DNA from: Candidatus Uhrbacteria bacterium
GTDB lineage: Bacteria > Patescibacteriota > Patescibacteriia > JACPHY01
Direction: 5' to 3'
Length of the DNA stretch: 42,116 bases
Assembly: GCA_043813445.1 (NCBI GenBank)
Contig: JBDRLD010000063.1
Span: forward strand, 1-42,116
Shown here: in pieces, positions 3,188 to 36,036 of the stretch
Layout: each line of letters opens with the position of its first letter
Position numbering within the stretch: the first letter of the stretch is position 1
Translations under genes and position numbers: made by a program
The notes under the pieces: model-generated
The model's input: only the letters and a program-made list of their open reading frames with translations
The model's database searches: none
Told to the model about the DNA's origin: nothing

Positions 3188-3403
3188 ATGCCGAACGGAA
3201 AGCGCGCACCGCGCGGCAGCAATCCTCCCCCGACCGATGCTTGCTGCTTCGCTACGAAGCACTCGCACGCGTGGGGTCTCGTCTTTATCCTCATTGGGGC
3301 GTACGCGCTCGCGAGTGAGGTTGGTTGGGTTCCGGATACGATTTCATTCTGGCCGATCGCGGCGATCACGTTTGGCCTCTACCTCCTCCCGGATCACTCG
3401 TAG
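3188..3403 (+). CDS. small membrane protein, unknown function
   Basis: 71-aa ORF with two hydrophobic helices (WGLVFILIGAYALA, FWPIAAITFGLYLL). A terminator follows. Confidence 0.45.
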   Translation: MPNGKRAPRGSNPPPTDACCFATKHSHAWGLVFILIGAYALASEVGWVPDTISFWPIAAITFGLYLLPDHS

Positions 3404-8162: not shown

Positions 8163-8906
8163 CTAGGTTCGATTCTGCGTTTTCTTAAGCTCCTCGACCG
8201 TTAGCGTATCGCTGATTATATACTGTCCCACGCGGGTGCGTTCTAGTGCAGATAGGTAGCCGCCGACGCCGAGCTGCTCACCAATATCACGTGCGAGCGA
8301 GCGGATGTAGGTGCCGGGTCCGCAGACGACGCGGAGTATGAGTTGAGAGTTGAGAGTGGATAGTTGATAGTTGAGGAGCTCAATCTCCTTAATTTCGACC
8401 TCGCGCGGCTCCATCTGTATGTCCTCACCCTTCCGCATGCGGCGGTGTGCCGGCTTGCCTTTGATTTTGATTGCGCTGTACTTTGGAGGGACTTGTTGGA
8501 TGTGGCCGATGAATTGTTGGAGTATAGGTAGTACTTCTTGGAGCGTTGGAGGTAACCACCCCCCCTCGCCCCCCCACCGAGAAGGATTGGGGGAATCTAT
8601 TTTTTTCTCCCCCACCCACCGGGAGGGGGAGTTAGAGGGGGTGGGGGTGACGGTTCCCTCCGCATCATCCGTGTCAGAGGTTGCACCGAGTGTGATGGTG
8701 GCGATGTACTCCTTTTCCTTTGCGACAATACCCGCGAGCTGTTTGGTTGCGTCGCGGCCAATACCAATAACAAGCACGCCGCTTGCCATGGGATCGAGTG
8801 TTCCCGCATGACCAACACGCCGCTCGCCGGTGATGCGGCGCACGGCGTTGACGATATCGTGCGAGGTCGGCCCCTTCGGTTTGTTGATGGCAACGATGTT
8901 GTCCAT
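8163..8906 (-). CDS. truB: tRNA pseudouridine(55) synthase TruB
   Basis: KPKGPTSHDIV and catalytic GHAGTLDPMASGVL motifs, plus C-terminal GTYIRSLARD. Contains two repeat-derived in-frame insertions. Confidence 0.9.
   Translation of the reverse strand: MDNIVAINKPKGPTSHDIVNAVRRITGERRVGHAGTLDPMASGVLVIGIGRDATKQLAGIVAKEKEYIATITLGATSDTDDAEGTVTPTPSNSPSRWVGEKKIDSPNPSRWGGEGGWLPPTLQEVLPILQQFIGHIQQVPPKYSAIKIKGKPAHRRMRKGEDIQMEPREVEIKEIELLNYQLSTLNSQLILRVVCGPGTYIRSLARDIGEQLGVGGYLSALERTRVGQYIISDTLTVEELKKTQNRT
8341..8376. repeat. heptamer array AGTTGAG/AGTTGAT (5 units) inside truB
   Basis: AGTTGAG AGTTGAG AGTGGAT AGTTGAT AGTTGAG. The same family occurs at 17183-17216, 32486-32510 and 33696-33726. Confidence 0.8.
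8555..8648. repeat. GC-rich palindromic element (two inverted units) inside truB
   Basis: ACCCCCCCTCGCCCCCCC...GGGGGAA, a short T-rich spacer, then CTCCCCCACCCACCGGGAGGGGGAGTTAGAGGGGGT. Related units occur at 29821-29882, 33348-33467 and 34157-34195. Confidence 0.75.
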
Positions 8907-17052: not shown

Positions 17053-17760
17053 TCAAGAGCGTCGGATTTTGCGCCACGCATCGATTTTTTTGTGATCGCC
17101 TTCCAGTAGTATCTTCGGCACGCGCCAATGCACACCGCGCTTAGGTGAAAAATCGGCTGGTCTCGTGTAGGCGGGTACACCGAGTTGATATTTGATATTT
17201 GATAGTTGAGAATGAAGCTCTCCAAAGCTTTCGTCCTCCAGCGATTCCGGATCGCCAAGCACGCCCGGAATCAAGCGGGTCACCGCATCGACGATGGTCA
17301 GTGCGGGAAGCTCGCCGCCGGTGAGGACGTATGGGCCAACACACACCTCCTCATCCGCGAGATGCTTCGCAACGCGTTCATCTACGCCTTCGTACCGGCC
17401 ACAGATGAGCACGAGTCGATTGTACTTCTTCGCGTACCGTTCCGCGTCGCGCTGCGTGAAGGGCTTGCCTTTGGCACTCATCAGCAGCACGCGAGTGCGG
17501 CGACGCGGGACGCTGGATGCTGGACGCTGGACGCAACGTAGCGCGCGCAAGGCACGATAGATCGGTTCCACCATCATCACCATACCCGCTCCACCACCGA
17601 ACGGCTTGTCGTCCACATTTCGGTGTTTCCCGGGGGCCCACTTACGAAGATCGTGCACGTCAAATCGAGCGAGTCGCTTTGTCTGTGCGCGCTTTAGCAT
17701 CGCCGCATTAACATACGGCGTAACGACCTCTGGGAAAATGGTGATGATATCTATTTTCAT
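17053..17760 (-). CDS. trmD: tRNA (guanine37-N1)-methyltransferase TrmD
   Basis: Motifs IITIFPE, VDDKPFGGGAGMVM, ICGRYEGVDERV, YVLTGGELPA and YTRP. Confidence 0.9.
   Translation of the reverse strand: MKIDIITIFPEVVTPYVNAAMLKRAQTKRLARFDVHDLRKWAPGKHRNVDDKPFGGGAGMVMMVEPIYRALRALRCVQRPASSVPRRRTRVLLMSAKGKPFTQRDAERYAKKYNRLVLICGRYEGVDERVAKHLADEEVCVGPYVLTGGELPALTIVDAVTRLIPGVLGDPESLEDESFGELHSQLSNIKYQLGVPAYTRPADFSPKRGVHWRVPKILLEGDHKKIDAWRKIRRS
17183..17216. repeat. heptamer array (AGTTGAT family) inside trmD
   Basis: AGTTGAT ATTTGAT ATTTGAT AGTTGAG AATGAAG, translated HSQLSNIKYQL. Confidence 0.75.
17508..17534. repeat. heptamer array GGACGCT (4 units) inside trmD
   Basis: GGACGCT GGATGCT GGACGCT GGACGC. 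The same array occurs at 22450-22469 in smc. Confidence 0.8.
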
Positions 17761-22089: not shown

Positions 22090-24306
22090 TCACCGTGTAA
22101 CTTGAGCGGCCTCTTCCAATTTCATGGAAAGTAATTTGCTTGCGCCATCGCCTGCCATCGTCACACCGTAGATGGCTGCAGCGCGCTCCATGGAGTAGCG
22201 GTTGTGTGTGACCACGAGGAATTGTGTCTGTTTCGCGAGGTCCTTCAGAATTTCTGCGAAGCGCACCGAGTTTGATTCATCGAGTGCCGCGTCTACCTCA
22301 TCGAGTACGACAAATGGCGACGTGCTTGCAGAGATGATTGCGCAGAGAAGTGCGATGGCGGTAAGCGCACGCTCGCCACCGGAGAGCATGGAGATCGATT
22401 TGATGCGTTTGCCGGGCGGCGTCGCTTGGATGTCGATGCCGGCAACGCCGGACGCTGGACGCTGGACGCCGGGCGCCCGGTCTTCAGGAGGAATATCATG
22501 GATGGTCCCTCCTTCGTTAACATCATCCTCCTGCAGTTTTTCTTCTATTTTGAGGAGGGTGAGCTTTGCGGATCCGCCGCCAAAGAGTTGGCGGAAATAT
22601 CGCTCAAAGTGTTCATTGATTTTCGTGAATGATGTGTGGAATGCACGATCGATTTCCTCCTCGAGTTCGGCGATGATGCGGTTCAGAGAATGGAGAGACG
22701 AGCGGAGGTCAACCGTTTGTTGTTCGAGGAAGGAAACTCGTTCTTTTGTTTCCTCATACTCGCGCACCGTTTCCTCGTCGAGCGTTCCGATCGCTGCCAG
22801 GTCGCGCTGAAGACGCATAATGCGATGCGATGCACCTTCCGGGGCTGCGGTGTCGGGCCGCGAGAGCGACTCCGGTTCACGGGCATCTTCGAAGTCTCGA
22901 AGAATCTCCGCGCGCAGATCTTCGCGGCGTTGCTCCGAGCGAGCGAGCTCGATGCGGAGATCGTTCGCATGCTGTGCTGTGCGGTTCAGCGTGAGCTGCT
23001 CGTCGCGGTATCGGCGTTGCAGGTCGAAAAGCGCACCCTTCTTTTTTCGTTCGTCCGCGTGGTAATCGGCCATCCGTCGCTGTACATCTCGAAGCTTATC
23101 CTCGATTGCTTTCAGTGCGTTCTCGGTATCGTGGAGTTCTTTCGGTGGTGCGTCGTCTTGTTCCGGTGCGGTGCGTAGGCGTATCGCGGCTATGCGTTCG
23201 TGAAGACCGCGTAGACGAGTGAGGGTCGGCTGAAGGTCGTCGAGCGACGTGATGAGACGGAGCGTTTCGAGGAAGGCATCGAAATCCGTGAGCAGTGTAT
23301 CGAGATCGGCGGTAAGTGCAGATGCGGGTAGCTCCTCGTGCTTCTCCGTGCGTTGCCGGATGTCATGCTTCATGGCAAGTACATGCTCGCGCAGCGACTG
23401 GCGTCGATCGACAAGTGTCTCGTACTCGTGCTGGAGCTTCATGAAAATATCGTCCTTCCGTTCCTCGATTTCGATCGTGTTGAGTTGCGCTTGAATGCCA
23501 TCGACAGCTTGCTGGAGACGCTTGCGTTCCGCGTCGGCTTCAGCACATGCGCGCTGCCCCTTCGAAAGCTTATCGCCAAGAGTGTGCCAACGCGCACCAT
23601 GGTACTGCTCGAGGAGTGTGGTTAGCTCGCGCTCCAGTTCTTCTCGTTGCTCGAGCCGTCGAACTTGTCGTGTGAGCGAGCGAAGTCGCGGGGTCAGTTC
23701 CTGGAGAAGTGTCTCACCCTGACGGAGATTCTCCTCGGCGCGCGAGAGTTTTCTAATCGCACCATCGCGTTTCAGCTCGGCAGGACGAATACCTGCCGCC
23801 TCATCGAAGAACGACTTTCGTGCCATGGGAGAAGCGAGGAGAAACTCATCGACCATTCCCTGACCGATGATCGAGTATGTGCGTTGACCGATACGCGATT
23901 CTGCGAGGAGGAGCTGGATGTCTTCGCGTCGCACCCTGGTGCCGTTGAGGAGATATTCGGATTCCCCGGAGCGATAGACGCGTCGGCCAATGACCACCTC
24001 GGTGAAGTCAATGGGTGCAGAATGATCTTCGTTGTTGAGGGTGAGTGTGACTTCGGCGATGCCAAGGCGAGGTCGTTTCGGTGTGCCTGCGAAGATGACG
24101 TCTTCCGCTTTCTTCCCGCGGAGGAGTTTCATGGATTGCTCGCCGAGTACCCAACGAACGGAGTCAACGACACAGGATTTACCTGAGCCGTTCGGGCCGA
24201 CGATCGCGGTGATGCCGCGTGAGTCACTTGTCGGTGGAAGGAATTCGAGCGTTACCGCGTTTGCGAACGACTTGAATCCGTTGATTTCGATTTTTTGTAA
24301 CCACAT
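22090..24306 (-). CDS. smc: SMC-family chromosome segregation ATPase, unusually short (738 aa)
   Basis: N-terminal head (FKSF, GPNGSGKS Walker A, VIFAGT) and C-terminal head (LSGGERALTAIALL signature, VLDEVDAALD Walker B, VVTHN). Only about 365 aa of coiled coil lie between them. Confidence 0.85.
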   Translation of the reverse strand: MWLQKIEINGFKSFANAVTLEFLPPTSDSRGITAIVGPNGSGKSCVVDSVRWVLGEQSMKLLRGKKAEDVIFAGTPKRPRLGIAEVTLTLNNEDHSAPIDFTEVVIGRRVYRSGESEYLLNGTRVRREDIQLLLAESRIGQRTYSIIGQGMVDEFLLASPMARKSFFDEAAGIRPAELKRDGAIRKLSRAEENLRQGETLLQELTPRLRSLTRQVRRLEQREELERELTTLLEQYHGARWHTLGDKLSKGQRACAEADAERKRLQQAVDGIQAQLNTIEIEERKDDIFMKLQHEYETLVDRRQSLREHVLAMKHDIRQRTEKHEELPASALTADLDTLLTDFDAFLETLRLITSLDDLQPTLTRLRGLHERIAAIRLRTAPEQDDAPPKELHDTENALKAIEDKLRDVQRRMADYHADERKKKGALFDLQRRYRDEQLTLNRTAQHANDLRIELARSEQRREDLRAEILRDFEDAREPESLSRPDTAAPEGASHRIMRLQRDLAAIGTLDEETVREYEETKERVSFLEQQTVDLRSSLHSLNRIIAELEEEIDRAFHTSFTKINEHFERYFRQLFGGGSAKLTLLKIEEKLQEDDVNEGGTIHDIPPEDRAPGVQRPASGVAGIDIQATPPGKRIKSISMLSGGERALTAIALLCAIISASTSPFVVLDEVDAALDESNSVRFAEILKDLAKQTQFLVVTHNRYSMERAAAIYGVTMAGDGASKLLSMKLEEAAQVTR
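22450..22469. repeat. heptamer array GGACGCT (3 units) inside smc
   Basis: GGACGCT GGACGCT GGACGC, translated VQRPAS as in trmD. Confidence 0.8.
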
Positions 24307-24312
24307 AGTGGC

Positions 24313-24402
24313 GACTACGGTCTAGAGTCTACGGACTACAGCAAGTCAAATTCCGACTACAGAAATTTCCCGACTGTAGTCGGTGGTCCGTAGACCGTAG
24401 TC
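24313..24402. repeat. inverted arrays of GACTACG-type heptamers (long imperfect palindrome)
   Basis: Left arm GACTACG GTCTAGA GTCTACG GACTACAG. Right arm GACTGTA GTCGGTG GTCCGTA GACCGTA GTC. Inner 9-bp hairpin CGACTACAG/CTGTAGTCG. Confidence 0.75.
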
Positions 24403-26852: not shown

Positions 26853-28835
26853 TTATTCCGGCAATGTGGGAGGGAGGGTGCTCATTAGGGGTGGGGTGTT
26901 TGTTGCGGGCGGGGATGTGGAATCGGTGGTGGACTCTGCATCCGCGCTCTCGGCTGCTTCCGCCGCGTCCACGTCCTCGCTTAGCTTTTCTACACCTACG
27001 AGGCACACCGCCTGCCACGGCCGATAATGTGATTTGAATTCCGTCTTCGTTATCTGACCGTCCGCTTGCGTAATTGTGCGTGTGAATTTTGCATCCGCGC
27101 CGGTGTGCGCGCGTTCCACACACTTTGTTTCGCCGGGCGGGATGTCAAGCGTTTCAACATACTTCGTCTCTGCCGGTTCGACGTAGTTGTACACCTCGGG
27201 CTCGGTGAGCGTCGTGGAGCGACCATCGCTCGTTCCCCAGATTTCGTACACCGGCTCCGTTCCATCAACGCGCGTCACGAGGAGGAGGTGGTGATTGGTA
27301 TCGTTCAAGAAGCGAAGGTCCGGCTGTGGGTTGTAGATTGTCGCGTCCATGCCAACCGGCGGCTCATAGTAGCCGACTCGGTACGCATGCGGCGATCGTT
27401 CGGTGATTGGGAGTCCGGCATAGAGTGCCGCGCGGAACAACGTGGAAGACACCTGGCAGAGACCACCACCGAATTCCGGAATGGTTCGATTTCCCTTGAT
27501 GACAAGCTCAGCCTTGTATCCGTTCGTTTCATCGAATGGGGTGAGCGTATTGATCGTCGAGAATTCCTCGCCCGGAGGAATGAGTACACCATTGAGGAGC
27601 TTCGAACCGGTTTTGATGTTGTGGATTCGATTGGCGGGGCTCGCACCGTAATTCGTACGGCCGGTTCCAAGGAGCTCACTGATTCCGAGATCATTCGTAT
27701 CGCGGAGCGCAATATCTGGTGGCGTTCGTTCAACCGGTAGTTCGATGAGCGGTGGGAGCGATCCGAATACCGTCGCGTTTATTTGCGAGAATAGGAGGTC
27801 GCGATTCACCGCAATACCTTCGCGAGATGGCGTAAACGAGGTGACGCGCTTCGTAGTTGGGTGAAAAGAAAGCTGTGCATTGCGCGCTGGCGTCTCTATG
27901 GATGTCGAAATGGTGGTGTCGACCCATGCTGTAAGGAGGTCGCGGTCCAGAATCGGCTGCGCAGCATCGTCAATCGCCAACCAGATCGCGAGGTGCTCCG
28001 GTTCGATGGTCCACCGATGATTATTGTGTGTGATGGTGATTGGTGCGCGGTCGCGTGCGCGTTCGAGGAGGGGGATCGCGGCGGCAGCGGTCGCATCGTC
28101 AAATGGCGGAGGAATCGTCGTGGCAGCGATCGCGATCGGAGCTGGGTCGAGTGTCGCGACGCGATAGCGAATAAGCTCCTCGAGCGTGCGATTCTCAACG
28201 CCGTGTCCGGCTATGCCGGGTTCAATGGTCCAGCTTGTCGGGTCGTCATCACTGACGCGTACGCGCGGCGGGCTCATGGTTGTGAACGCGTCCGGATAGT
28301 TTTCTTCGAGCGCGGTAGCGATAAGTTCGGTGTGTACGGTCGCCTGAATTGGAACCCGTGCACCGCTTCGAAGCGCGCCACGGAGACGCTCGGACCATTG
28401 GCTGGAGATCGAGTCGGAGCGGCCCATAGAGAAGGCGGCCTCAATGTGTGATGGGACATCCACGCTCACGAGCGGGTACCAGAGGTCCGGGTCGGATGGT
28501 GCCATGACAATCGCATCGATGGTCACCGTTCTCCCATCAAGCGCAAACGAAAATCCTTGGCCGAGGTATGCATCAAGCACCTTCTGTACGCGCTCGGTCG
28601 CCTCCTGTTTCGTGAAGCCGCCAACATCAATAGTGCCCACGGACGTCCCTGGGAAGATGCGATCGGTGTACGCGTGGTCGTATGTAATTGCTCCGACGCC
28701 GATAGCGCCAAGCAGAAGGATTGCCAGACCGCCGGCAAGTGACCATGCGAGTGTGTGGGAGAGATGATGCGTGAGCTTGCTTGGTTGTTCACGCGTTGTC
28801 GGTTCCTGTTCCATGTGGAGTGTCGTCAGTTCCAA
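26853..28835 (-). CDS. VanW family protein (membrane-anchored)
   Basis: N-terminal TM helix. The VanW core is FGGGLCQVSSTLFRAALYAGLPITERSPHAYRVGYY. The C-terminal tail is low-complexity. Confidence 0.85.
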   Translation of the reverse strand: MELTTLHMEQEPTTREQPSKLTHHLSHTLAWSLAGGLAILLLGAIGVGAITYDHAYTDRIFPGTSVGTIDVGGFTKQEATERVQKVLDAYLGQGFSFALDGRTVTIDAIVMAPSDPDLWYPLVSVDVPSHIEAAFSMGRSDSISSQWSERLRGALRSGARVPIQATVHTELIATALEENYPDAFTTMSPPRVRVSDDDPTSWTIEPGIAGHGVENRTLEELIRYRVATLDPAPIAIAATTIPPPFDDATAAAAIPLLERARDRAPITITHNNHRWTIEPEHLAIWLAIDDAAQPILDRDLLTAWVDTTISTSIETPARNAQLSFHPTTKRVTSFTPSREGIAVNRDLLFSQINATVFGSLPPLIELPVERTPPDIALRDTNDLGISELLGTGRTNYGASPANRIHNIKTGSKLLNGVLIPPGEEFSTINTLTPFDETNGYKAELVIKGNRTIPEFGGGLCQVSSTLFRAALYAGLPITERSPHAYRVGYYEPPVGMDATIYNPQPDLRFLNDTNHHLLLVTRVDGTEPVYEIWGTSDGRSTTLTEPEVYNYVEPAETKYVETLDIPPGETKCVERAHTGADAKFTRTITQADGQITKTEFKSHYRPWQAVCLVGVEKLSEDVDAAEAAESADAESTTDSTSPPATNTPPLMSTLPPTLPE

Positions 28836-29031
28836 GAATCTCGTTCAAAATCGCTTTCGCGTTCGCGGTGCGGTCGTCCGTTTCGGTGTCGTTAATACCA
28901 AAGCTCAGCGCGATGACATCGCCCTCCGTCGCTTCGTCCGGGAGCTCGGCGCGCGGCACGATAACGCTGTCGCCGCTCTCAAGGATGAGCACGGCGCGGT
29001 CATCTTCAAAACGATCGATAGTAACATCCAT
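28789..29031 (-). CDS. DUF3006 domain protein
   Basis: MDVTIDRFEDDRAVLILESGDSVIVPRAELPDEATEGDVI matches the DUF3006 pattern. The 3' end overlaps the VanW-family start by 26-47 nt, depending on which start is used. Confidence 0.6.
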   Translation of the reverse strand: MDVTIDRFEDDRAVLILESGDSVIVPRAELPDEATEGDVIALSFGINDTETDDRTANAKAILNEILGTDDTPHGTGTDNA

Positions 29032-29100
29032 ACGATGGACTACGGTCGATAGACTACGATCTACAGTCAAACGGTAGTTGGTAGCCGGTGGCCGGTAGTC
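29031..29100. repeat. run of about 10 heptamer units (TACGGTC / GGTAGTT types)
   Basis: GATGGAC TACGGTC GATAGAC TACGATC TACAGTC AAACGGT AGTTGGT AGCCGGT GGCCGGT AGTCGAT. Confidence 0.7.
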
Positions 29101-29102
29101 GA

Positions 29103-29543
29103 TTACTCAGTCATCTCCTCGATGCCGATGATTGTCTGTGATGCTAGCTTCGGCAGGGTGATTGTGAGGACGCCAGCGCGGAGTGTTGAGTTTGCACGCG
29201 ACACGTCGATAGGTTCCGGGAGGAGGATAGAGCGAGAGAAACGCCCCCAGAAACACTCCTCGACGAGGTACGTTCGTTCCTCATTGTGCGGCTCCGGTGT
29301 ACGGACGCCGCGGATCGTGAGGAGGTCGCTATGGACGGACAGCGATAGTTCGTCCGGTCGGACGCCGGAAACGGTCGTCTGCACGACGAACGCATTTGCG
29401 GTTTCGTATACGTCTACGGTCAGTTCGCCCTCGGATGCTTCCTCGATCCACTTATCCGGTTGGAGGAGGGGAATAGCGTGTTCGTCCTGGGCGGTTACGG
29501 TCGCGGGGAATTCCTTCGTGGCTGTTTTGAAAAACGCTGCCAT
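29103..29543 (-). CDS. Hsp20/alpha-crystallin family small heat-shock protein
   Basis: Alpha-crystallin domain LTVDVYETANAFVV...LLTIRG...GRFSRSILLP...GVLTITLPK. Confidence 0.9.
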   Translation of the reverse strand: MAAFFKTATKEFPATVTAQDEHAIPLLQPDKWIEEASEGELTVDVYETANAFVVQTTVSGVRPDELSLSVHSDLLTIRGVRTPEPHNEERTYLVEECFWGRFSRSILLPEPIDVSRANSTLRAGVLTITLPKLASQTIIGIEEMTE

Positions 29544-29596
29544 AGGGGTAGTGAAATGGGGAGAAAATCATGCGTGACATTTCCAGTGTACCCTGA

Positions 29597-29618
29597 ATTT
29601 CTAGCATATGCGAGAAAT
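29597..29618. promoter_or_regulatory. 22-bp near-perfect palindrome upstream of hsp20 (candidate operator)
   Basis: ATTTCTAGCAT|ATGCGAGAAAT with 10 of 11 positions symmetric, 54-75 nt upstream of the hsp20 ATG. Confidence 0.35.
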
Positions 29619-29640
29619 ACGCTCCATTGAGCGGCAGACC

Positions 29641-29669
29641 TTGACAATTCGGCGGATTTGTGGTATATT
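29641..29669 (+). promoter_or_regulatory. promoter TTGACA-N17-TATATT
   Basis: Hexamers at 29641-29646 and 29664-29669. It is followed by a leader of about 310 nt before the ATG at 29989. Confidence 0.6.
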
Positions 29670-29739
29670 TTGTCGTTATGGAATCAGCCGTACAATGGCT
29701 GTATTCCCGTACGTTTCCAATTCGTATGAGTTATTCAGT

Positions 29740-29909
29740 GTCATTGCGAGTAAGGCGAAGCCGAGCGCGGCAATCCCGTTGTAAGTGAACCGGATCGCCA
29801 CCCGCCACAAGCTTCGCACGCCACCCCCTCGTACTCCCCCTCCCGCACTGCGGCGGACTCGGAAGCTAGAAGAGGGGGAGGCCAGCGCGAGGATGCGACT
29901 CGCGATGAC
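29740..29909. mobile_element. MITE-like 170-bp element with 12-bp terminal inverted repeats
   Basis: The TIRs are GTCATTGCGAGT (29740-29751) and ACTCGCGATGAC (29898-29909), matching at 11 of 12 positions. The core 29821-29882 carries the GC-rich unit ACCCCCTCGTACTCCCCC...GGGGGAG, also found inside truB, tsaD and tsaE. Confidence 0.4.
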
Positions 29910-29988
29910 ATAAGACATGGCATGAGATGATCTCCAACCCTTGAACGTAGGGGCGGGGCATAGTCCCCGCCCGCGAAGGAGAAGAACG

Positions 29989-31596
29989 ATGAGTCGAATC
30001 GAAGAGCTTCAGCGTGAGATCGAATCGCTGGAGCCGCCTGCGGACTTCGGCGATCTCGTACGGCGCGCGCTTGCAACGCGCAAGGACGTGGCACCTGAGG
30101 AGGTGTGTACGGATCATGCAGCACCATGCGCGGAGTGCGAAGCGTATTCGTTGACCGCGATCAGGTCGAGTACAGACAAAGATTGGGGTGTGATGCGCGA
30201 TTCGGCGTGGCTGTCCTGCGCCAAGAACATCCTTCTAACGTACGCCGGTGTTGGCGTGTGTGCGGCGACGGCGTTGTTTGGAAGCGGTTTATCCCCGCTG
30301 CTCTACACCCTCGGCATGGTCGTCGGTGGTGTGTCCGCACTCGTCGGCGGATGGAGAAGGAATCGCGACCACAATCGTGTAAACGGAGTAAAAGGATCAC
30401 CTGTCCAAGCGGGGTTCTTTTGCGGGGGATTCACGATCGTGAATCTCCTCGCGCCGATCTGGTTCTGGTACCGGCCGATCTGTCTCGGGCTGCACAAGCT
30501 CGGGCATGGCTGGCAGCGGGTGAAGGCGTGGTTCAAGCGGCGGTTCGTGGACGACTGCGACGAGTGCCGGAAGTGGCGCATGCAGGCGGGCGGGAAGGAA
30601 CAATTCGGTCTGAAGCTGCTCACTGGCCTGCTCGTGAATGGCGGTGTGATGATGATGTTGACATGTCTGGCTACAGGTCTGATTTTGGGGATGAGCGAGA
30701 ATAGCGTCGATGTTTACTCCTTGATCTTTTCGCTCGGAACCTTGACAGCATTCATCGGGATTTTCATCGGAATAAAATGTGGTGTCGATTGCACGATGGC
30801 CATGATGGCGCCGTGGCGAGCATTGCGCCACCTCATCCGTTCCTGCTTCGGCCTGCGATACGTGTTCCATCGACACCTGCACGAGCGATCGGCTGCGAAA
30901 GAGATCGACACCATCGCGGCGCGACTGCAGAGCGAGGTGAGCGATGAGGATCTCCGGGTGCTCATTCGGCAGTACCTCAGCGATGAGCTGATCTGCGCCA
31001 CGCGCGATCGCCTAATCGGCGACGACAGCACGTACGCGCGGCTGGCCGCGGCTACCGCGCAGTACATCGCGCGCGCCAAGATGCGGCTCGAGCAGTACGC
31101 GGCATTCGAAGCGAGCGAGGACCCGGTGATCCGCGAGCAGAGTGCGCAGCTCAGCAGCAGCGTCGAGCAGTTCCTTGGCGAGAACGAAGCGTGTCGGCAG
31201 GTGCTCGAGGAGTACCGCGCAATGGTCGCCGCGAAGTTTGCCGAGCTCGAAGCGCAGATCGGAAACGTGGACGAGCGCATGCAGTTCCTCGCGATCGCTC
31301 GCGATACGGACGCGTTGCTCGCCGACGGCAAGGATCACGCGCGACTCGTGCGCGAGGCCGTCGTCTCGCTGACGTGCGAGCTTTTCCGGGCCACCGCGGC
31401 CATCCGAGCGGCCATCGACGCCGCGCTCGCGCGTGCGAAGAGCGAGACCGAAGTGGAAGTCGCAGCGGCTTCGAACGAAGTGCTCGCGTTCGCCGTGCTA
31501 CGCAACACAGCGCAGCACCTGCGCGGCAGCATGGACAATGCCCCAGCCGAGGCCGAGCAGCGCCCCGCGCCCCAGGCCCAGCCCGTGGCGCAGTAG
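29989..31596 (+). CDS. hypothetical polytopic membrane protein with Cys motifs and C-terminal coiled-coil domain
   Basis: ATG 29989 has GAAGGAG upstream. There are about six TM helices between aa 75 and 300, the motifs CTDHAAPCAECE and DDCDECRKW, and an alpha-helical Ala/Glu/Arg-rich C-terminal half. Confidence 0.6.
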   Translation: MSRIEELQREIESLEPPADFGDLVRRALATRKDVAPEEVCTDHAAPCAECEAYSLTAIRSSTDKDWGVMRDSAWLSCAKNILLTYAGVGVCAATALFGSGLSPLLYTLGMVVGGVSALVGGWRRNRDHNRVNGVKGSPVQAGFFCGGFTIVNLLAPIWFWYRPICLGLHKLGHGWQRVKAWFKRRFVDDCDECRKWRMQAGGKEQFGLKLLTGLLVNGGVMMMLTCLATGLILGMSENSVDVYSLIFSLGTLTAFIGIFIGIKCGVDCTMAMMAPWRALRHLIRSCFGLRYVFHRHLHERSAAKEIDTIAARLQSEVSDEDLRVLIRQYLSDELICATRDRLIGDDSTYARLAAATAQYIARAKMRLEQYAAFEASEDPVIREQSAQLSSSVEQFLGENEACRQVLEEYRAMVAAKFAELEAQIGNVDERMQFLAIARDTDALLADGKDHARLVREAVVSLTCELFRATAAIRAAIDAALARAKSETEVEVAAASNEVLAFAVLRNTAQHLRGSMDNAPAEAEQRPAPQAQPVAQ

Positions 31597-31637
31597 GCAC
31601 CTCGACGACCAAGCGCAACACCGACCATGGAGAGGAC

Positions 31638-31982
31638 ATGACCAAAACAGTATACCTCCTCGCACGACTGAACATCACCGGTCCCGTGCCGGTGGTGAGC
31701 GAGGTATTGATTTCGTGGAATCACCCGGCGGAGATGATCGAGGTAAGTCGTGGTTCTTTCTACGTAATCGTCTGGTCGATTGACAGCAAGGATGCGCCGG
31801 ATGCATTCGATCGCCTACGCCGTATCGTGTTCGAACGTAATGATCTCGCGTGGGCGCGGCCGTACCTCGAGGAAGAGGGTGAAGTACCGGAAGTAGTGGC
31901 GTTGCGCCATCGGTGCCTCAGCTCCACGGCCAAGCACCTCGTTGCGGTGGCGCGCTCGTTCCTTGAGTGTGTAAATCTGTAG
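31638..31982 (+). CDS. hypothetical protein
   Basis: ATG 31638 has GGAGAGG upstream. 114 aa. The upstream Arg-rich part of ORF 31191..31982 overlaps the previous gene and is rejected. Confidence 0.55.
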   Translation: MTKTVYLLARLNITGPVPVVSEVLISWNHPAEMIEVSRGSFYVIVWSIDSKDAPDAFDRLRRIVFERNDLAWARPYLEEEGEVPEVVALRHRCLSSTAKHLVAVARSFLECVNL

Positions 31983-32012
31983 CGCAAGCGCAGCGCGATC
32001 AGACAAATCAGG

Positions 32013-32047
32013 ACGACCCCTACTCACATGGGGGTCGTTTCATTTTT
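32013..32047 (+). terminator. intrinsic terminator
   Basis: ACGACCCC...GGGGTCGT followed by TTCATTTTT. Confidence 0.6.
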
Positions 32048-32050
32048 CAC

Positions 32051-32095
32051 CAATAGCAAAAGCTCCCCATGCGAGATGGGGAGCTTTTGCTATTG
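32051..32095. terminator. perfect 20-bp-stem palindrome abutting the tRNA-Glu 3' end
   Basis: CAATAGCAAAAGCTCCCCAT-GCGAG-ATGGGGAGCTTTTGCTATTG. Confidence 0.5.
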
Positions 32096-32165
32096 ACCCC
32101 ACCGGGAATCGAACCCGGATTTCAAGGATGAAAACCTTGCGTCCTGACCACTAGACGATGGGGCC
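32094..32165 (-). tRNA. tRNA-Glu (anticodon TTC)
   Basis: Acceptor GGCCCCA/TGGGGTC (one G-U pair), D arm TCGTCTAGTGGTCAGGAC, anticodon arm CAAGG-TTTTCAT-CCTTG, T arm CCGGG-TTCGATT-CCCGG. Confidence 0.85.
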
Positions 32166-32475
32166 GGAGTACGTACCCTCCTTTAAAGCCTTTCGAAGCA
32201 TTCCAGAGTTTTTAATAAGACGTTCTCGTTGCAGCGCTTCCTTTTTTGTGTCGTGTTCTTCCTGGTAGATGAGCGTATATGGGCGATGTGGTTTTGTCGA
32301 TTGAACTTTTCCTGCATTGTGTTCTCGAAGACGACGGGCGACATCATTTGTTTCCCCGATGTAAAGTGTTTTATTGGAGACGCTCTGTAGTACGTACACG
32401 AAATTCAACATAGGTGCGTCTCAGGCGTAGCCTGACCCGGCTACGCCGGGCTGACCACTAGACGATGGGGCCGGA
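32144..32475 (-). mobile_element. GIY-YIG gene cassette flanked by a 25-bp direct repeat of the tRNA-Glu 5' end
   Basis: CTGACCACTAGACGATGGGGCCGGA occurs at 32144-32168 and 32451-32475 (identical). It corresponds to tRNA positions -3 to +22. GC content between the repeats is lower than in the flanks. Confidence 0.5.
32151..32411 (-). CDS. GIY-YIG nuclease family protein
   Basis: 86 aa. FVYVLQS...LYIGETNDVARRLREHN is the GIY-YIG core, and a conserved E occurs in ALQRERLIK. The last 5 codons and the TAG stop lie inside tRNA-Glu. Confidence 0.8.
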   Translation of the reverse strand: MLNFVYVLQSVSNKTLYIGETNDVARRLREHNAGKVQSTKPHRPYTLIYQEEHDTKKEALQRERLIKNSGMLRKALKEGTYSGPIV

Positions 32476-32560
32476 AGAGTTGACAAGTTGAGAATGGATA
32501 GTTGATAGTTGCAGGACAGGCACAGGAACAGCAAACCACATACAATACACTACGTCAATC

Positions 32561-33841
32561 ATGGTAGCATGGTCGTACATGGGAGAGAAACAGACCATTC
32601 GCGTTCTCGGAATTGAGTCGTCATGCGATGAAACCGCGGCGGCCATTGTTCATGTTGCACGAACAAGGGATCGCGGGCGTTGGCGGTATGCGTTTGACGT
32701 GCGGTCGAATGTTGTTGCATCGCAGGTGAAGACGCACGCGAAGTACGGAGGCGTCGTTCCGGAAATCGCGGCACGCGCACATGTGGAGGCCATTATTCCG
32801 GTCATCGATGAGGCGGTTGGGCTACGGAAGTTCGACGCGGTTGCGGTGACGTCCGGGCCTGGTCTCGTCACATCGCTTGCGGTGGGCGTGGAGACTGCAC
32901 GGACCATCGCGTTCGCGCGTCAGCTCCCGGTCATCGGGGTGAATCATATTGAGGGTCATATCCTCTCTGCCCTACTCAAGCCAGGCAGAGAGGAACAAGG
33001 AACAGGAAATAGAAGACAAGAAACTCAGCACGTTCCCATGTCCCATGTCTCTTATCCCATGTTCCCTACAGTTTGTCTCGTCGTCTCAGGCGGTCATACC
33101 GAGCTGCTGCTGATGCGGGGATGGGGGAAGTACGAGCTGATTGGCGCGACACGGGATGATGCGGTTGGTGAAGCGTTCGATAAGGTGGCAAAGCTGCTCG
33201 GCCTCGGGTATCCGGGCGGGCCAATCGTATCGCAGCGTGCGGCGCAGGGCGATGCAGCGGCGTTTGATCTTCCGCGACCGATGATGGATTCGGATGACTT
33301 TGATTTTTCGTTCTCTGGGTTGAAGACTGCGGTGCGTTACATGATTTCTCCACCTCCTGCGAGGAGGGGGAGAGTAAGAGGGGGTCGTGCGCGAGCAGTC
33401 ATCTCTGAGCGTAATCGAATCGTCAACAATACCACCCCCTCTCACTCCCCCTGCGGGGCAAGGGGAGAACCGTCCGAGGCGGAAGGGGGGGAACAAGTTG
33501 GGACGCCCAAACGCCGGAAAGAGGTCTCCGATATCTGCGCGAGCTTCCAGCAAGCGGCTGTCGATGTGCTCGTGGCGAAGACGGTGCGCGCGGCGCGGGA
33601 GTTTGGCGCGAAGGCCGTGCTGCTTGGTGGGGGCGTGGCGGCGAATACGCAACTCCGTCATCAACTCGGCAATGCGCTGCAGCAAGAGATACCAGCTATC
33701 ACCTATCACCTATCAACTATCAATTACTGCGGTGATAACGCGGCCATGATCGCCGCGGCAGGTGGTGTGCGGCTCCTCTCGGGACAGCAGACGCCATGGA
33801 AACGACTTGATGTAAATCCGAATTGGGAGTTAGGGAGGTAA
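32561..33841 (+). CDS. tsaD: tRNA N6-adenosine threonylcarbamoyltransferase TsaD
   Basis: Motifs VLGIESSCDETAAA, YGGVVPEIAARAH, NHIEGH, VSGGHTEL, FSFSGLKT and GDNAAMIA. An alternative start lies at 32579. Three repeat-derived insertions are present. Confidence 0.9.
   Translation: MVAWSYMGEKQTIRVLGIESSCDETAAAIVHVARTRDRGRWRYAFDVRSNVVASQVKTHAKYGGVVPEIAARAHVEAIIPVIDEAVGLRKFDAVAVTSGPGLVTSLAVGVETARTIAFARQLPVIGVNHIEGHILSALLKPGREEQGTGNRRQETQHVPMSHVSYPMFPTVCLVVSGGHTELLLMRGWGKYELIGATRDDAVGEAFDKVAKLLGLGYPGGPIVSQRAAQGDAAAFDLPRPMMDSDDFDFSFSGLKTAVRYMISPPPARRGRVRGGRARAVISERNRIVNNTTPSHSPCGARGEPSEAEGGEQVGTPKRRKEVSDICASFQQAAVDVLVAKTVRAAREFGAKAVLLGGGVAANTQLRHQLGNALQQEIPAITYHLSTINYCGDNAAMIAAAGGVRLLSGQQTPWKRLDVNPNWELGR
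32982..33067. repeat. inverted heptamer arrays (GGAACAN / ATGTCCC) inside tsaD
   Basis: AGAGGAA CAAGGAA CAGGAAA TAGAAGA CAAGAAA ... CGTTCCC ATGTCCC ATGTCTC TTATCCC ATGTTCC. Confidence 0.75.
33348..33467. repeat. two inverted GC-rich units inside tsaD
   Basis: CTCCACCTCCTGCGAGGAGGGGGAGAGTAAGAGGGGGT (33348-33385) and its approximate reverse complement ACCCCCTCTCACTCCCCCTGCGGGGCAAGGGGAG (33434-33467). Confidence 0.75.
33696..33726. repeat. heptamer array (AGTTGAT family, reverse orientation) inside tsaD
   Basis: GCTATCA CCTATCA CCTATCA ACTATCA ATT is the reverse complement of the AGTTGAT/AGGTGAT units. Confidence 0.75.
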
Positions 33842-33903
33842 CCATGTGCTGATCGTGGATTGAGTTCCTCCGAAATGCGATCAGTACGGCAAAACTATTC
33901 CAC

Positions 33904-34455
33904 ATGAAAGAGAAATACACGAGCCACAGCGAAGAGGAGACTATGCGGATCGCGGCAACGCTTGCGGCCGAGCTTCATGGTGGCGAGGTGGTGCTGCTCG
34001 AGGGGGAGCTTGGTGCGGGGAAGTCTGTGTTTGTTCGTGGGCTCGCGCACGCGCTCGGTGTCACGCACCGCATGCCAAGCCCCACCTTTGTGCTTATGCG
34101 CGTGTACGGAATGAAACAGACGGAGAATAGAGAACAGAGAACAAAGAATCGGATCCCCACCCCCTCTCACTCCCCCTCCCGGCGGGAGGAGGAGAAAAGA
34201 AAGTGTTCCATGTCCACCAGCCATTCCTTCGCTCAGTCGCTTCGTTATTTCATCCACGTCGACGCGTACCGTGTGAACGACGCGCAGGAGCTTGATGCAA
34301 TCGGCCTACGCGAGTGGCTTGGCCGTGAAGATGCGATTGTCGCCATCGAGTGGGGCGAGCGTGTAGCACCGACATTACGCGACATACGTATTATCCAAGT
34401 CCTCCTGTCCATTGGACGCACGGCGGAAATGCGGAGCATTCACATCGTGCGGTAA
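33904..34455 (+). CDS. tsaE: tRNA threonylcarbamoyladenosine biosynthesis ATPase TsaE
   Basis: P-loop LEGELGAGKSVFVRG, SPTFVL and HVDAYR motifs. Carries an insertion of about 40 aa made of repeat DNA. Confidence 0.85.
   Translation: MKEKYTSHSEEETMRIAATLAAELHGGEVVLLEGELGAGKSVFVRGLAHALGVTHRMPSPTFVLMRVYGMKQTENREQRTKNRIPTPSHSPSRREEEKRKCSMSTSHSFAQSLRYFIHVDAYRVNDAQELDAIGLREWLGREDAIVAIEWGERVAPTLRDIRIIQVLLSIGRTAEMRSIHIVR
34117..34230. repeat. composite repeat element inside tsaE (heptamer arms flanking a GC-rich unit)
   Basis: CAGACGG AGAATAG AGAACAG AGAACAA AGAATCG, then ACCCCCTCTCACTCCCCCTCCCGGCGGGAGGAGGAG, then GTGTTCC ATGTCCA CCAGCCA. Confidence 0.75.
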
Positions 34456-34625
34456 TTGTGGTAGCGTACAAACGAGCCGTTCAGTAGATTACGGCGATGC
34501 ACGAGGAGATGTTGACGGACAAAGAGCTCGATGATGAGCATATTGGGTTTATTTGGCGCGCGTTTGTACTACCGAGAGCACACACTGCCGCGAGCGGGTG
34601 AGTAGGAGGGTCAGCAAAGAGGAAT

Positions 34626-34657
34626 GGAAAGCGGCCCCCGAATATGTCGGGGGCCGC
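34626..34657 (-). terminator. intrinsic terminator of the TraR-type operon
   Basis: GCGGCCCCCGA-ATATG-TCGGGGGCCGC. Confidence 0.6.
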
Positions 34658-34674
34658 TTCAGCACACGTGTGCA

Positions 34675-34971
34675 CTAGGACGTGCGTGGGTTTCTTCGCT
34701 GGAGTTCAGCGAGTGCCTTGCGGATTGTGCGGCAGAATTCTTCGTAGCTCCTGTTGCCGTCTTGAAATATCGTGCGGAGCTGATCCGTTGAGAGCTGTTC
34801 CAGAGTGCGCTCCTCCTCGTCATCGAAGTCCGATTCGAGTCGGAAGGTGTCGCGGATGGTTTCACGCCAGATGGGCAGGAGCACCTCCTCGAGTGTCGTG
34901 CTCGTCCCGGAAGCCAGCAGCACTGTTGCTGCGCGCTTCAAGCCATACTGCCAAACACCGCGTGCGTTCAT
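34675..34971 (-). CDS. hypothetical small protein, paralogue of 34989..35270
   Basis: 98 aa. Shares W..GL..AA..L......E..L.PIWR and F.DEE...IF.....FC..R.A...L.RR with the upstream gene. Confidence 0.55.
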   Translation of the reverse strand: MNARGVWQYGLKRAATVLLASGTSTTLEEVLLPIWRETIRDTFRLESDFDDEEERTLEQLSTDQLRTIFQDGNRSYEEFCRTIRKALAELQRRNPRTS

Positions 34972-34988
34972 CGCTCCCCCTGTTATCC

Positions 34989-35270
34989 TTAGCCGCGATG
35001 GCGGCGTGCAAGTATCTCGAATGCATCCCGGGCGACTCCGCAGAATGCATCGAAGCTGTAGGTTCCGGTGAATATGGCCAGCACATCAACGTCGGGCATC
35101 GCGGAGAATGCACCCCCCTCTTCATCGGTGAATCCTGGCCCTGCCTGGAGCATTGTCAGGATCATCGCGCGCCAGATCGGAAAGAGCGTTTCCTCGATCG
35201 GTGCGGAGGATACCGCGAGCGTGCGAGCAGCGGTTCGAAGGCCGTCCTTCCAGGTGGTACGCAGGGTCAT
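34989..35270 (-). CDS. hypothetical small protein, paralogue of 34675..34971
   Basis: The ATG at 35270 overlaps the TraR/DksA stop as ATGA. 93 aa (MTLRTTWKDGLRTAARTL...). Confidence 0.55.
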   Translation of the reverse strand: MTLRTTWKDGLRTAARTLAVSSAPIEETLFPIWRAMILTMLQAGPGFTDEEGGAFSAMPDVDVLAIFTGTYSFDAFCGVARDAFEILARRHRG

Positions 35271-35548
35271 GTTTCCCTCCGCTCGTATCGCTCCTGGCAC
35301 ACAACGCATCGCGTTGCGGATGGTCGTGCGAACATTCGGTCGTCGCCAATGGGCTCCTCGCAGTCCTCGCAGATGCAATGGCGCTCTTCGTCGATTCGGG
35401 CGAGCGCGCGGCGAACTTGTGGGAGTGCGATGTTGATCTTGTGTGCGAGGCGGATCGGAGCGAGATACTCGCGTGCGATTTCGGCGGTGATGGCTCGCTC
35501 TCGTTCGAGAAGGAACGAGCGCGGTTCGCCACGTTGTGATGCGGCCAC
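35267..35548 (-). CDS. TraR/DksA family C4-type zinc-finger protein
   Basis: CEDC-x17-CVVC zinc finger at the C-terminus. GTG 35548 has GGGAGGA upstream and lies downstream of the promoter, whereas the ORF-track ATG 35611 lies upstream of the predicted TSS. Confidence 0.7.
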   Translation of the reverse strand: MAASQRGEPRSFLLERERAITAEIAREYLAPIRLAHKINIALPQVRRALARIDEERHCICEDCEEPIGDDRMFARPSATRCVVCQERYERRET

Positions 35549-35598
35549 GACTCCTCCCTTTGTGAAAGATCTATTCGCTGACAGTGAGCTATCTGGGC

Positions 35599-35627
35599 AG
35601 CATAGCAGCACCCTTCCGGGATGTCAA
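35599..35627 (-). promoter_or_regulatory. promoter TTGACA-N17-TATGCT
   Basis: Minus-strand hexamers at 35622-35627 and 35599-35604. Confidence 0.6.
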
Positions 35628-35656
35628 GGTCCGTACAGTTAACACTAAACATGGTG

Positions 35657-35685
35657 TTGACAGCATTTTTGGCTTGTGGTACGGT
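35657..35685 (+). promoter_or_regulatory. promoter TTGACA-N17-TACGGT
   Basis: Hexamers at 35657-35662 and 35680-35685, back to back with the minus-strand promoter 30 nt away. Confidence 0.55.
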
Positions 35686-35730
35686 GCATCTGCTCAGTCC
35701 GTGAGCATGTAATGGAGAGAGGAGACAATC

Positions 35731-36036
35731 ATGGCACAGCACGGTGCTCGCAACGCAATCGTCGATTTCGGAGAGGTCCGCGAGTGTGTGCAGGGCGCTG
35801 GCGACATCATCCGAACTGCAATTCAGGCGGCTGGGGGTACCACCGAAGAGGTGCGCCCAGGACGCCTAATCATCGATCTTCCAGGAGAGACAAGACGTGT
35901 TGAGGTGTCGATCACGGAGGACGACTACCTTCCACGCGTACTCGAGTGCTTTCAGAGAGAGGGGAGGACAATTCCCCCCACTCTCCGGCAGGTCTTCATC
36001 GAACGAGGCCTCCTCGATCCCGAGGAAGCCCCGTAG
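35731..36036 (+). CDS. hypothetical protein
   Basis: 101 aa. GAGAGGAG lies upstream of the ATG. No family recognised. Confidence 0.5.
   Translation: MAQHGARNAIVDFGEVRECVQGAGDIIRTAIQAAGGTTEEVRPGRLIIDLPGETRRVEVSITEDDYLPRVLECFQREGRTIPPTLRQVFIERGLLDPEEAP

Follow-up and report, generated by a model that had tools for sequence, protein, structure and literature searches.

The tsaE gene of a Candidatus Uhrbacteria bacterium carries an extra in-frame segment in the turn between its conserved SPTF and HVDAYR motifs. This segment is best explained as a nested pile-up of two independent classes of dispersed repeats, heptamer-type arms around a GC-rich core, which accumulated in a permissive turn and are translated as a disordered loop, an explanation that we consider probable at roughly 70%. 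The gene lies on contig JBDRLD010000063.1, a stretch of 42,116 nucleotides (nt) that is referred to here as the window, from a member of the candidate phyla radiation (CPR, or Patescibacteria). An interpretation made from the letters alone (the sequence-only reading) had assigned the heptamer arrays and the GC-rich core to repeat families and had joined them at tsaE into one composite palindromic element type. Each of the two does belong to a dispersed family in this genome; their union into one type does not survive the comparisons described below.

The gene and its extra segment are placed as follows.

33904-34455, forward strand: tsaE coding sequence, an intact open reading frame (ORF) of 183 amino acids (aa) with a Walker A motif (GELGAGKS) and the SPTF and HVDAYR motifs.
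34111-34239, forward strand: extra in-frame segment of 129 nt (aa 70-112) that keeps the frame open and occupies the turn linking strand E65-69 to strand E115-120.

The identity of the product is clear. Pfam family PF02367 (TsaE) recognizes it at 1.4e-30 (106.3 bits, versus a curated cut-off of 26.6), with the profile alignment broken into two stretches, TsaE chains in the PDB match it at 1.4e-17, and it has all 24 invariant columns of the homologue alignment. When aligned to Thermotoga maritima TsaE (6n9a_E), query residues 6-69 correspond to chain residues 8-72 and query residues 113-153 to chain residues 74-113, leaving about 43 residues (about 70-112; nt about 34111-34239) without a counterpart. 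The spacing between SPTF and HVDAYR is 55 aa, a net gain of 37 aa over the baseline spacing of 18 aa. The in-frame insert of about 40 aa that the sequence-only reading had placed between the two motifs is thus confirmed, and the peptide that it quoted, KQTENREQRTKNRIPTPSHSPSRREEEKRKCSMSTSH, is present in the translation of the ORF.

An AlphaFold (AF2) model of TsaE, built from an alignment of 29 homologues, has a mean pLDDT of 85.6, with values above 90 outside of the insert. Residues 70-114 are modelled as low-confidence coil, with mean pLDDT values per 10-residue block of 48-62. The best Foldseek match of this model is again 6n9a_E (probability 1.00, TMt 0.75). The nucleotide site is flanked by both motifs, SPTF and HVDAYR; by topology, the loop joining the two strands should therefore lie at their far end, away from the ATP site.

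The same turn is expanded in many relatives. The homologues number 684, the best non-self match being 51% identical, and they are assigned to the CPR/Patescibacteria from partial source names together with the taxa to which the loci belong. Among the best 120 of these 684, the 109 that have both motifs show an SPTF-HxDxYR spacing of 17-19 aa in 72 cases and of at least 21 aa in 37, with a maximum of 59. Alignment of orthologues and mapping onto the structure, the checks that the sequence-only reading had proposed, therefore place the insert as a low-confidence coil in a turn, absent from most homologues. The DNA of the loop was compared for ten relatives, designated L116 to L125.

L116: inverted octamer arrays, ACCATAGA / GTTCTACA.
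L117: inverted octamer arrays, AGAGCAGC / AGCTCTAC.
L118: inverted heptamer arrays, AGCTGCA / CAGCTTG.
L119: inverted heptamer arrays, TAGCCGA / ATCGGCT.
L120: octamer array with a C-rich hairpin of another kind (CTTCCCCCTT-ccag-AAGGGGGGAG).
L121 (locus 45-599): AGCTGCA palindrome plus two extra nested hairpins.
L122: ATCAACA array broken by a hairpin.
L123: weakly periodic palindrome, about 8 nt.
L124: arms only, +15 aa, GAGCAAG GAACGAG GAACGGG ... GTCCTGT GTCCCAT.
L125: empty loop, VYAVSEHLTIRHFVHVDAYR, 18-aa spacing.
Window: arms plus core, +37 aa.

Eight CPR tsaE genes (L116-L123) therefore have repeat or palindromic inserts at this loop that lack the core of the window, and each keeps the frame through its own, different insert. 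The inserts of these eight fold better than shuffled sequences, with z values from -1.5 to -8.2, versus +0.43 for the insert of the window. Between L116 and L117 every copy in the right arm has the same T/C change and the left arm has the complementary A/G change (GAAC/GTTC versus GAGC/GCTC), indicating that the arms evolve in concert and remain complementary. In a DNA alignment with L116 and L117, the extra letters of the window fall into a single central block, at the position of the core. L124 and L125 are syntenic with the window (tsaD, tsaE, a TraR/DksA-type gene and a T2SSE/pilB gene), and the arm units of L124 are of the same class as GAGAACA/AGAACAA and GTGTTCC/ATGTCC in the window. 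The three states found in these syntenic relatives suggest that the arms came first and that the core came later, near their centre.

Further observations concern these loci. Relative to L118, L121 has two small hairpins, one per arm, a case of recursive nesting in a loop that folds at -86 kcal/mol. A diverged core-like hairpin (CCATCCCATCTCGCTCCCCCT-cctagcagga-AGGGGAGAAA) is found in L124 at 3228-3270, directly downstream of the tsaE stop codon. An alanine racemase gene is directly upstream of tsaE in L117, L118, L119 and L124, lying between tsaD and tsaE in L118 and L124, the contigs of which also show tsaD; unlike in these two, tsaD and tsaE adjoin in the window (33842-33903 region).

The insert of the window is composed of the following parts, all on the forward strand.

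34117-34151: left arm, five purine-rich heptamers, CAGACGG AGAATAG AGAACAG AGAACAA AGAATCG, found by Tandem Repeats Finder (TRF) and autocorrelation.
34155-34198: GC-rich core unit of 44 nt, CCCCACCCCCTCTCACTCCCCCTCCCGGCGGGAGGAGGAGAAAA, translated as (I)PTPSHSPSRREEEK, with ends defined by metagenome copies.
34156-34166: mirror segment of the core, CCCACCCCCTC, which reads as the 5' stem arm reversed but not complemented, apart from a single T to A change.
34170-34194: core hairpin, with 5' arm CTCCCCCTCCC (34170-34180), loop GGC (34181-34183) and 3' arm GGGAGGAGGAG (34184-34194), present in the minimum free energy (MFE) structures.
34199-34230: right arm, a decayed pyrimidine-rich segment, GAAAGTGTTCCATGTCCACCAGCCATTCC, whose complementarity to the left arm is only partial.

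The left arm is a genuine heptamer array, as the sequence-only reading had it: TRF reports a period of 7 over 34123-34148 with 3.7 copies and 89% matches, and the autocorrelation scan finds a period-7 signal at 34119-34151 (score 0.81). Its pattern is unique to the tsaE site within the window, and its unit class (GAACAG/GAACAA) recurs in an insert in tsaD (32985-33062) and in the arms-only loop of L124. The right arm had been read as heptamers as well (GTGTTCC ATGTCCA CCAGCCA); neither TRF nor autocorrelation detects a period-7 signal there, and the best period in the right half is 3, at 0.67. The right arm does resemble the right arms of L124 (GTCCTGT GTCCCAT) and the GTTCTACA array of L116, and about 8-10 bp form between the right and left arms in the MFE structure. 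The notion that arms and core make one long imperfect hairpin has to be given up: RNA folds of the whole insert are no better than those of shuffled sequences (z +0.44 for 34100-34250, -0.14 for 34111-34239 and +0.43 in a third test). The sole clear helix within the insert is the core hairpin of 25 nt, with 11 stem positions that include one C.A mismatch, and the 44-nt core unit by itself folds at -17.7 kcal/mol (z -1.5). The core unit starts with CCCCACC, ends with GGAGAAAA and has no GTAG or CGTC tag. No direct repeats were seen bracketing 34155-34198 or the copies in truB and tsaD.

That the core is a member of a repeat family, as had been proposed, is evident from the window itself, where its pattern CCACCCCCTCNNACTCCCCCT, allowing at most three mismatches, has five matches versus 0.00 expected. 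The copies other than that in tsaE are these.

8556-8646, reverse strand: truB cores, a full core at 8600-8646, forward in the gene and reading TPTPSNSPSRWVGEKK, and an inverted half-copy at 8556-8581.
33345-33470, forward strand: inverted core pair in tsaD, with 33345-33391 reverse and 33432-about 33470 forward, fold z -3.6.
29815-29885, forward strand: non-coding core copy in a leader region.

The tsaE core is 89% complementary over 47 nt to the truB copy at 8600-8646; the core region of truB folds at z -3.0, and the Pfam TruB_N match there is split into two stretches. The forward in-gene cores of tsaE (34155-34198), tsaD (33432-33470) and truB (8600-8646, reverse strand) are read in one common frame (TPxPS[HN]SPS...). 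A GAAYCGK motif is found 3-10 nt before these three in-gene cores, in AGAATCGG, CGAATCGAATCGT and GGAACCGT (34146-34152, 33408-33419 and 8647-8656 on the reverse strand, respectively); it could be a target preference or chance, and is absent at the other metagenome-contig copies. A search of 28000-36000 against Rfam at a permissive threshold gave a tRNA and chance miRNA-like matches on the tsaD core pair, and no family matching the core. A possible mobilizing nuclease was sought in the GIY-YIG cassette at 32151-32411, but its hairpins are unrelated to the core and no link was found.

The limits of the core were set using contigs of four groundwater/biofilm metagenomes (three studies, 2016-2024), which were compared with 33700-34600. 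All four contain a contig that spans the tsaE insert with the core present and 0-2 differences, every one of which is outside the insert, and none of the four has a contig without the core at the tsaE site. These data bear on the idea that the insert is no part of the protein, being excised from the mRNA, skipped by the ribosome or created by assembly. Nothing direct speaks for it, although a role as a bypass or processing signal is conceivable for the core hairpin. It is scarcely credible given that the frame is open through the 129 extra nt, that every relative is in frame through an insert of its own, and that four independent assemblies span the junctions. Six other metagenome contigs, one of which is the truB copy, match just 34154/5-34189/34199, mostly ending at 34197-34199, followed by unrelated sequence. 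The shared unit is therefore about 34155-34198, 44 nt that exclude the arms. A metagenome scan for the core variant specific to the window gave 0 matches.

A family search with a 21-nt signature (19 specified bases) in a collection of species-representative genomes extends the core far beyond CPR. The signature occurs in more than 115 stretches among the matches listed, and the carriers among these include cyanobacteria (Cyanothece sp. BG0011, Leptolyngbyaceae, Pseudanabaena and Coleofasciculus), CPR lineages (Uhr-, Andersen-, Buchanan-, Sacchari-, Peri-, Berkel- and Liptonbacteria), Planctomycetota (among them the isolate Aquisphaera insulae), Bacteroidota, Chloroflexota and Gammaproteobacteria (among them the isolate Alcanivorax hongdengensis). 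The hairpin partner AGGGGGAG is present in 96 of 118 copies, the loop measuring 5 nt in 61 of them and 6 nt in 25, so that the cross-phylum unit amounts to 34-35 nt; the 22 matches without the partner look like chance matches in GC-rich DNA. Among 91 testable copies, 33 are bordered on both sides by at least 50 codons of a stretch free of stops, versus 306 of 455 control positions. The flanks of such copies read like DnaG, LigA, UvrC, a class-I aminoacyl-tRNA synthetase, phosphoglucomutase (PGM), glucose-6-phosphate isomerase (PGI), a P-type ATPase and MeaB. Across genomes, five of the six frames of the core are in use, and the remaining one contains a stop.

Whether arms and core belong together can be judged from how often they meet, and co-occurrence beyond tsaE, on which the sequence-only reading had staked its single element type, is essentially absent from the window, from genomes and from 241 million metagenome records. 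The window has about 10 heptamer-array sites and 5-6 core sites, and the two adjoin at tsaE alone. Of the 228 flanks of 119 cross-phylum core copies, 4 have a period of 7, all of them in one Cyanothece genome (control 9 of 2380). No GAACA-type heptamers were found 4-30 nt upstream of the core in the metagenome records. One composite palindromic mobile element, with heptamer terminal arrays and a GC core inserted as a unit, could be argued for from the position of the tsaE core, which has a purine-rich array on one side and a pyrimidine-rich segment of partial complementarity on the other, from the TsaE loops of L120, L121 and L122, which pair tandem arrays with other small hairpin modules, and from a few Cyanothece cores that are embedded in heptamer tracts. 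Against this, L124 and L116-L119 have arms at this loop but lack the core, the core stands without arms at 224 of the 228 flanks and at other sites in the window, the metagenome copies have just the 44-nt unit in common, the composite pattern has 0 matches in the 241 million records, and the insert taken as a whole does not fold into a hairpin. Such an element is highly unlikely, and the proposal is already largely refuted. There is a weaker association at the level of the classes, arrays and hairpins, in which accumulation in permissive loops accounts for L120-L122 as well as targeting does.

The arrays are dispersed in their own right. In tsaD they occur with arm units of the tsaE class.

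32985-33062, forward strand: heptamer palindrome in tsaD, of the tsaE-arm unit class, without a core.

Patches of the AGTTGAT type (8348-8373, 17183-17208 and 32486-32511, forward strand), 85-96% identical, are found in truB, in trmD and upstream of tsaD, with an inverted copy (33697-33722) within the 3' part of tsaD. Patches of the GACGCTG type, 86% alike, are in frame in trmD (17498-17534, VQRPASSVPRR) and smc (22440-22476, GVQRPASGVAG). Heptamer patches are thus dispersed repeats themselves, found in truB, trmD, smc and tsaD. The inverted AGTTGAT-type copies bracket most of tsaD, and the patches of this type translate as NYQLSTLNSQL, HSQLSNIKYQL and ITYHLSTINY. An intergenic palindrome of GACTACGG-type tandem units (24313-24402), between smc and a divergent DHH-family gene, folds at -45.2 kcal/mol (z -5.1), and a related array is present at 29038-29101.

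A rival possibility is that the insert or its nucleic-acid structure is selected, as a basic charged loop touching tRNA or TsaB/TsaD, or as a structure in mRNA or DNA at which translation or transcription would pause or that would mark a site of processing. The expansion of the loop in one third of CPR homologues is consistent with this, as is the peptide, which is rich in K, R and E, and the complementarity of the arms is kept among relatives while their sequence changes, as selection for pairing would give. We consider it unlikely nonetheless: the sequences, lengths and peptides of the inserts are not conserved among lineages, the close syntenic relative L125 has no insert, the insert is modelled as disordered, the arms of the window no longer pair (z about 0), and the same repeats are present in unrelated genes and in intergenic DNA.

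The architecture of the core suggests a structural hypothesis. All fetched loci (L001-L125) were scanned for perfect C/T-rich hairpins, each hairpin being counted on both strands. Upstream of C-rich hairpins, after a linker of 2-3 nt (TAA, TAG, CAA), there is a mirror image of the 5' stem arm. Every C is mirrored as C in 168 of 399 strand-instances versus 1 in the 3'-side control, and by an 8-nt mirror score 68 of about 81 non-core hairpins (about 84%) carry the mirror segment. Positions that mirror a stem T are occupied by A (181), T (167), C (62) and G (4). At least 11 different arm sequences obey this rule, as in the pairs CCCTCCCC with CCCCACCC, CCCCTCTC with CTCACCCC and CCTCCCCT with ACCCCACC, indicating that the three segments co-vary. 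In the tsaE core (CCCACCCCCTC, TCA, CTCCCCCTCCC, GGC, GGGAGGAGGAG) 10 of the 11 positions are mirrored and the eleventh is T to A.

An intramolecular triple helix is built in this way, from a mirror repeat beside its purine complement, and the G-rich strand would give G.G-C and T.A-T or A.A-T triples. The tsaE core has the sequence features of such H-DNA, a homopyrimidine mirror repeat that adjoins the purine complement of one half, with C mirrored as C and T as T or A; the likeness is a prediction from sequence. The covariation of mirror segment and hairpin would thus fit a triple-helix pairing code, and we know of no dispersed bacterial repeat family with this architecture. A G-quadruplex or i-motif was considered for the core and set aside; four G-tracts in the G strand make such folds possible, yet the T/A mirroring is explained by neither. 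A more speculative and rather doubtful suggestion is that the core represents cross-phylum, self-folding triplex micro-elements of about 35 nt, which would be copied by a structure-specific route without a classical transposase and for which heptamer arrays in CPR and in cyanobacteria would serve as a preferred landing substrate. Such putative micro-elements may land at the apex of heptamer palindromes and in loops of essential genes.

On the explanation that we favor, the nested pile-up of two repeat classes, events may have proceeded as follows. The turn after the SPTF strand tolerates extra sequence, being expanded in 37 of 109 close homologues. In CPR relatives, the DNA of this loop usually consists of a tandem array of 7- or 8-nt units, a short spacer and an inverted array, with units specific to a lineage and complementary arms. 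The loop would have passed from empty (L125) to arms only (L124) to arms plus core (window), a series that is observed in an order that is presumed. The core is a discrete unit of 44 nt from a cross-phylum family of mirror segment plus hairpin of which about one third of the sampled copies are in frame in long ORFs. As a non-autonomous mobile or copy-pasted micro-element, it may have been inserted into the single-stranded apex of the extruded palindrome that the array formed. It presumably survived because its length keeps the frame, because that frame has no stop, and because the site is a floppy loop. Once the apex was enlarged the arms would no longer be homogenized and would decay, and this decay may be why the insert of the window alone no longer folds.

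Several points weigh against this explanation. No mobilizing enzyme was identified, the window being the part of this genome that was covered, and no transposase was found there. The near-identity of a 35-nt core across phyla is hard to fit with ordinary, lineage-specific coevolution of repeat and transposase. Viral contigs gave two matches, both without the hairpin arm and attributable to chance, and no sign of a phage vector. A TsaE tree with the insert masked (137 columns) is poorly resolved and does not decide between inherited and repeatedly acquired arms, and the orthologues with an empty site are too distant to show exactly where the core went in or whether a target-site duplication flanks it. 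Translation of the insert as part of TsaE is surmised from the open frame, the matching runs being of DNA only. A rival account has nothing mobile, with the arrays arising in place by polymerase slippage and the core spreading only by gene conversion or recombination between copies, or being made anew by structure-driven repair. Heptamer simple sequence repeats (SSRs) are over-represented in many bacteria and have been ascribed to slippage (PMC4692102). The units of an array change in concert (L116 versus L117), and neither a target-site duplication at the ends of the core nor a transposase is visible. However, near-identical heptamer patches in unrelated genes (85-96% and 86%) indicate dispersal and not local birth, and the sharp ends and unrelated flanks of the core at many loci and in many phyla need a copy-and-insert step, making this account improbable.

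By analogy with known systems, the repeats appear to be like Rickettsia palindromic elements (RPEs) in their behavior, while their anatomy seems closest to cyanobacterial short tandemly repeated repetitive sequences (STRRs) with an embedded small dispersed repeat (SDR). RPEs (Ogata et al. 2000) are described in PMC10969869 as elements of about 150 bp, confined to Rickettsia and each encoding a conserved peptide. As with RPEs, short dispersed repeats sit in frame in unrelated housekeeping genes, where they would be translated as extra peptide at sites that the fold tolerates, and they also lie in intergenic DNA. The differences are a unit of about 100-150 bp versus a core of 44 nt, and a restriction to Rickettsia versus a core in many phyla and a groundwater CPR-like host. 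The tsaE insert, moreover, is a nest of two families with no excess fold, and its core is read in five frames where each RPE is described as having a conserved peptide.

Elhai et al. in 2008 reportedly described STRRs as heptanucleotide tandem repeats in cyanobacteria with an embedded, hairpin-forming SDR of about 21-27 nt. The likeness consists of tandem 7-nt arrays with many unit sequences, as the TRF period of 7 shows for tsaE, and of very small hairpin modules that are nested in other repeats and have no known transposase. In tsaE a 25-nt hairpin lies in a 44-nt unit between arms, a likeness by description and not by consensus sequence, and the same core is present within heptamer tracts in Cyanothece. 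The arrays here form inverted pairs and the hairpin unit has an extra mirror segment, in which they differ, and STRR/SDR are described as intergenic, whereas the repeats here are in frame in essential CPR genes. SDR or SDR-like repeats are reported only from the Nostocaceae lineage (PMC5861425), and STRR/SDR are also cited in PMC4390886 and PMC4692102.

Repetitive extragenic palindromic sequences (REPs) and REPINs, mobilized by RAYT transposases (PMC3116915, PMC3733652), share with the core a short, GC-rich imperfect palindrome, a conserved single-stranded 5' flank and many dispersed copies, often in inverted doublets as in tsaD and truB here. The core differs in having no GTAG/CGTC tag, and is neither extragenic nor lineage-specific. 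The heptameric SSRs of Xanthomonas and Nostoc (PMC4692102) likewise show an over-represented 7-nt period, arrays that are sometimes inverted, and fast turnover of length and sequence among close relatives. They are intergenic and G-rich (GGGAATC, GGGGAYT), in contrast to the diverse units in coding loops found here. MITEs, the miniature inverted-repeat transposable elements, differ in that no target-site duplication is seen here and in that the arms are outside the shared unit, which has no terminal inverted repeats. A literature search for the strings of the core arms returned nothing relevant, and no publication was found on such inserts in CPR genes or linking CPR with in-frame palindromic repeats.

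Two repeat classes that are easily taken for one element are separated here. In practice, inserts of this kind inflate profile matches and break them up, TsaE, TsaD and TruB each being matched in two stretches, and they could pass as novel domains. The covariation of mirror segment and hairpin provides a concrete hypothesis of an intramolecular triplex, which is testable in vitro. A core of 34-35 nt that is kept nearly letter for letter across phyla, often in the frame of housekeeping genes, implies either very broad-host copying or a strong structural constraint. For the CPR bacteria themselves, the series of empty, arms-only and arms-plus-core loops indicates that essential genes of streamlined genomes may gain loop sequence from tiny dispersed repeats, and not by duplication or by the gain of a domain.

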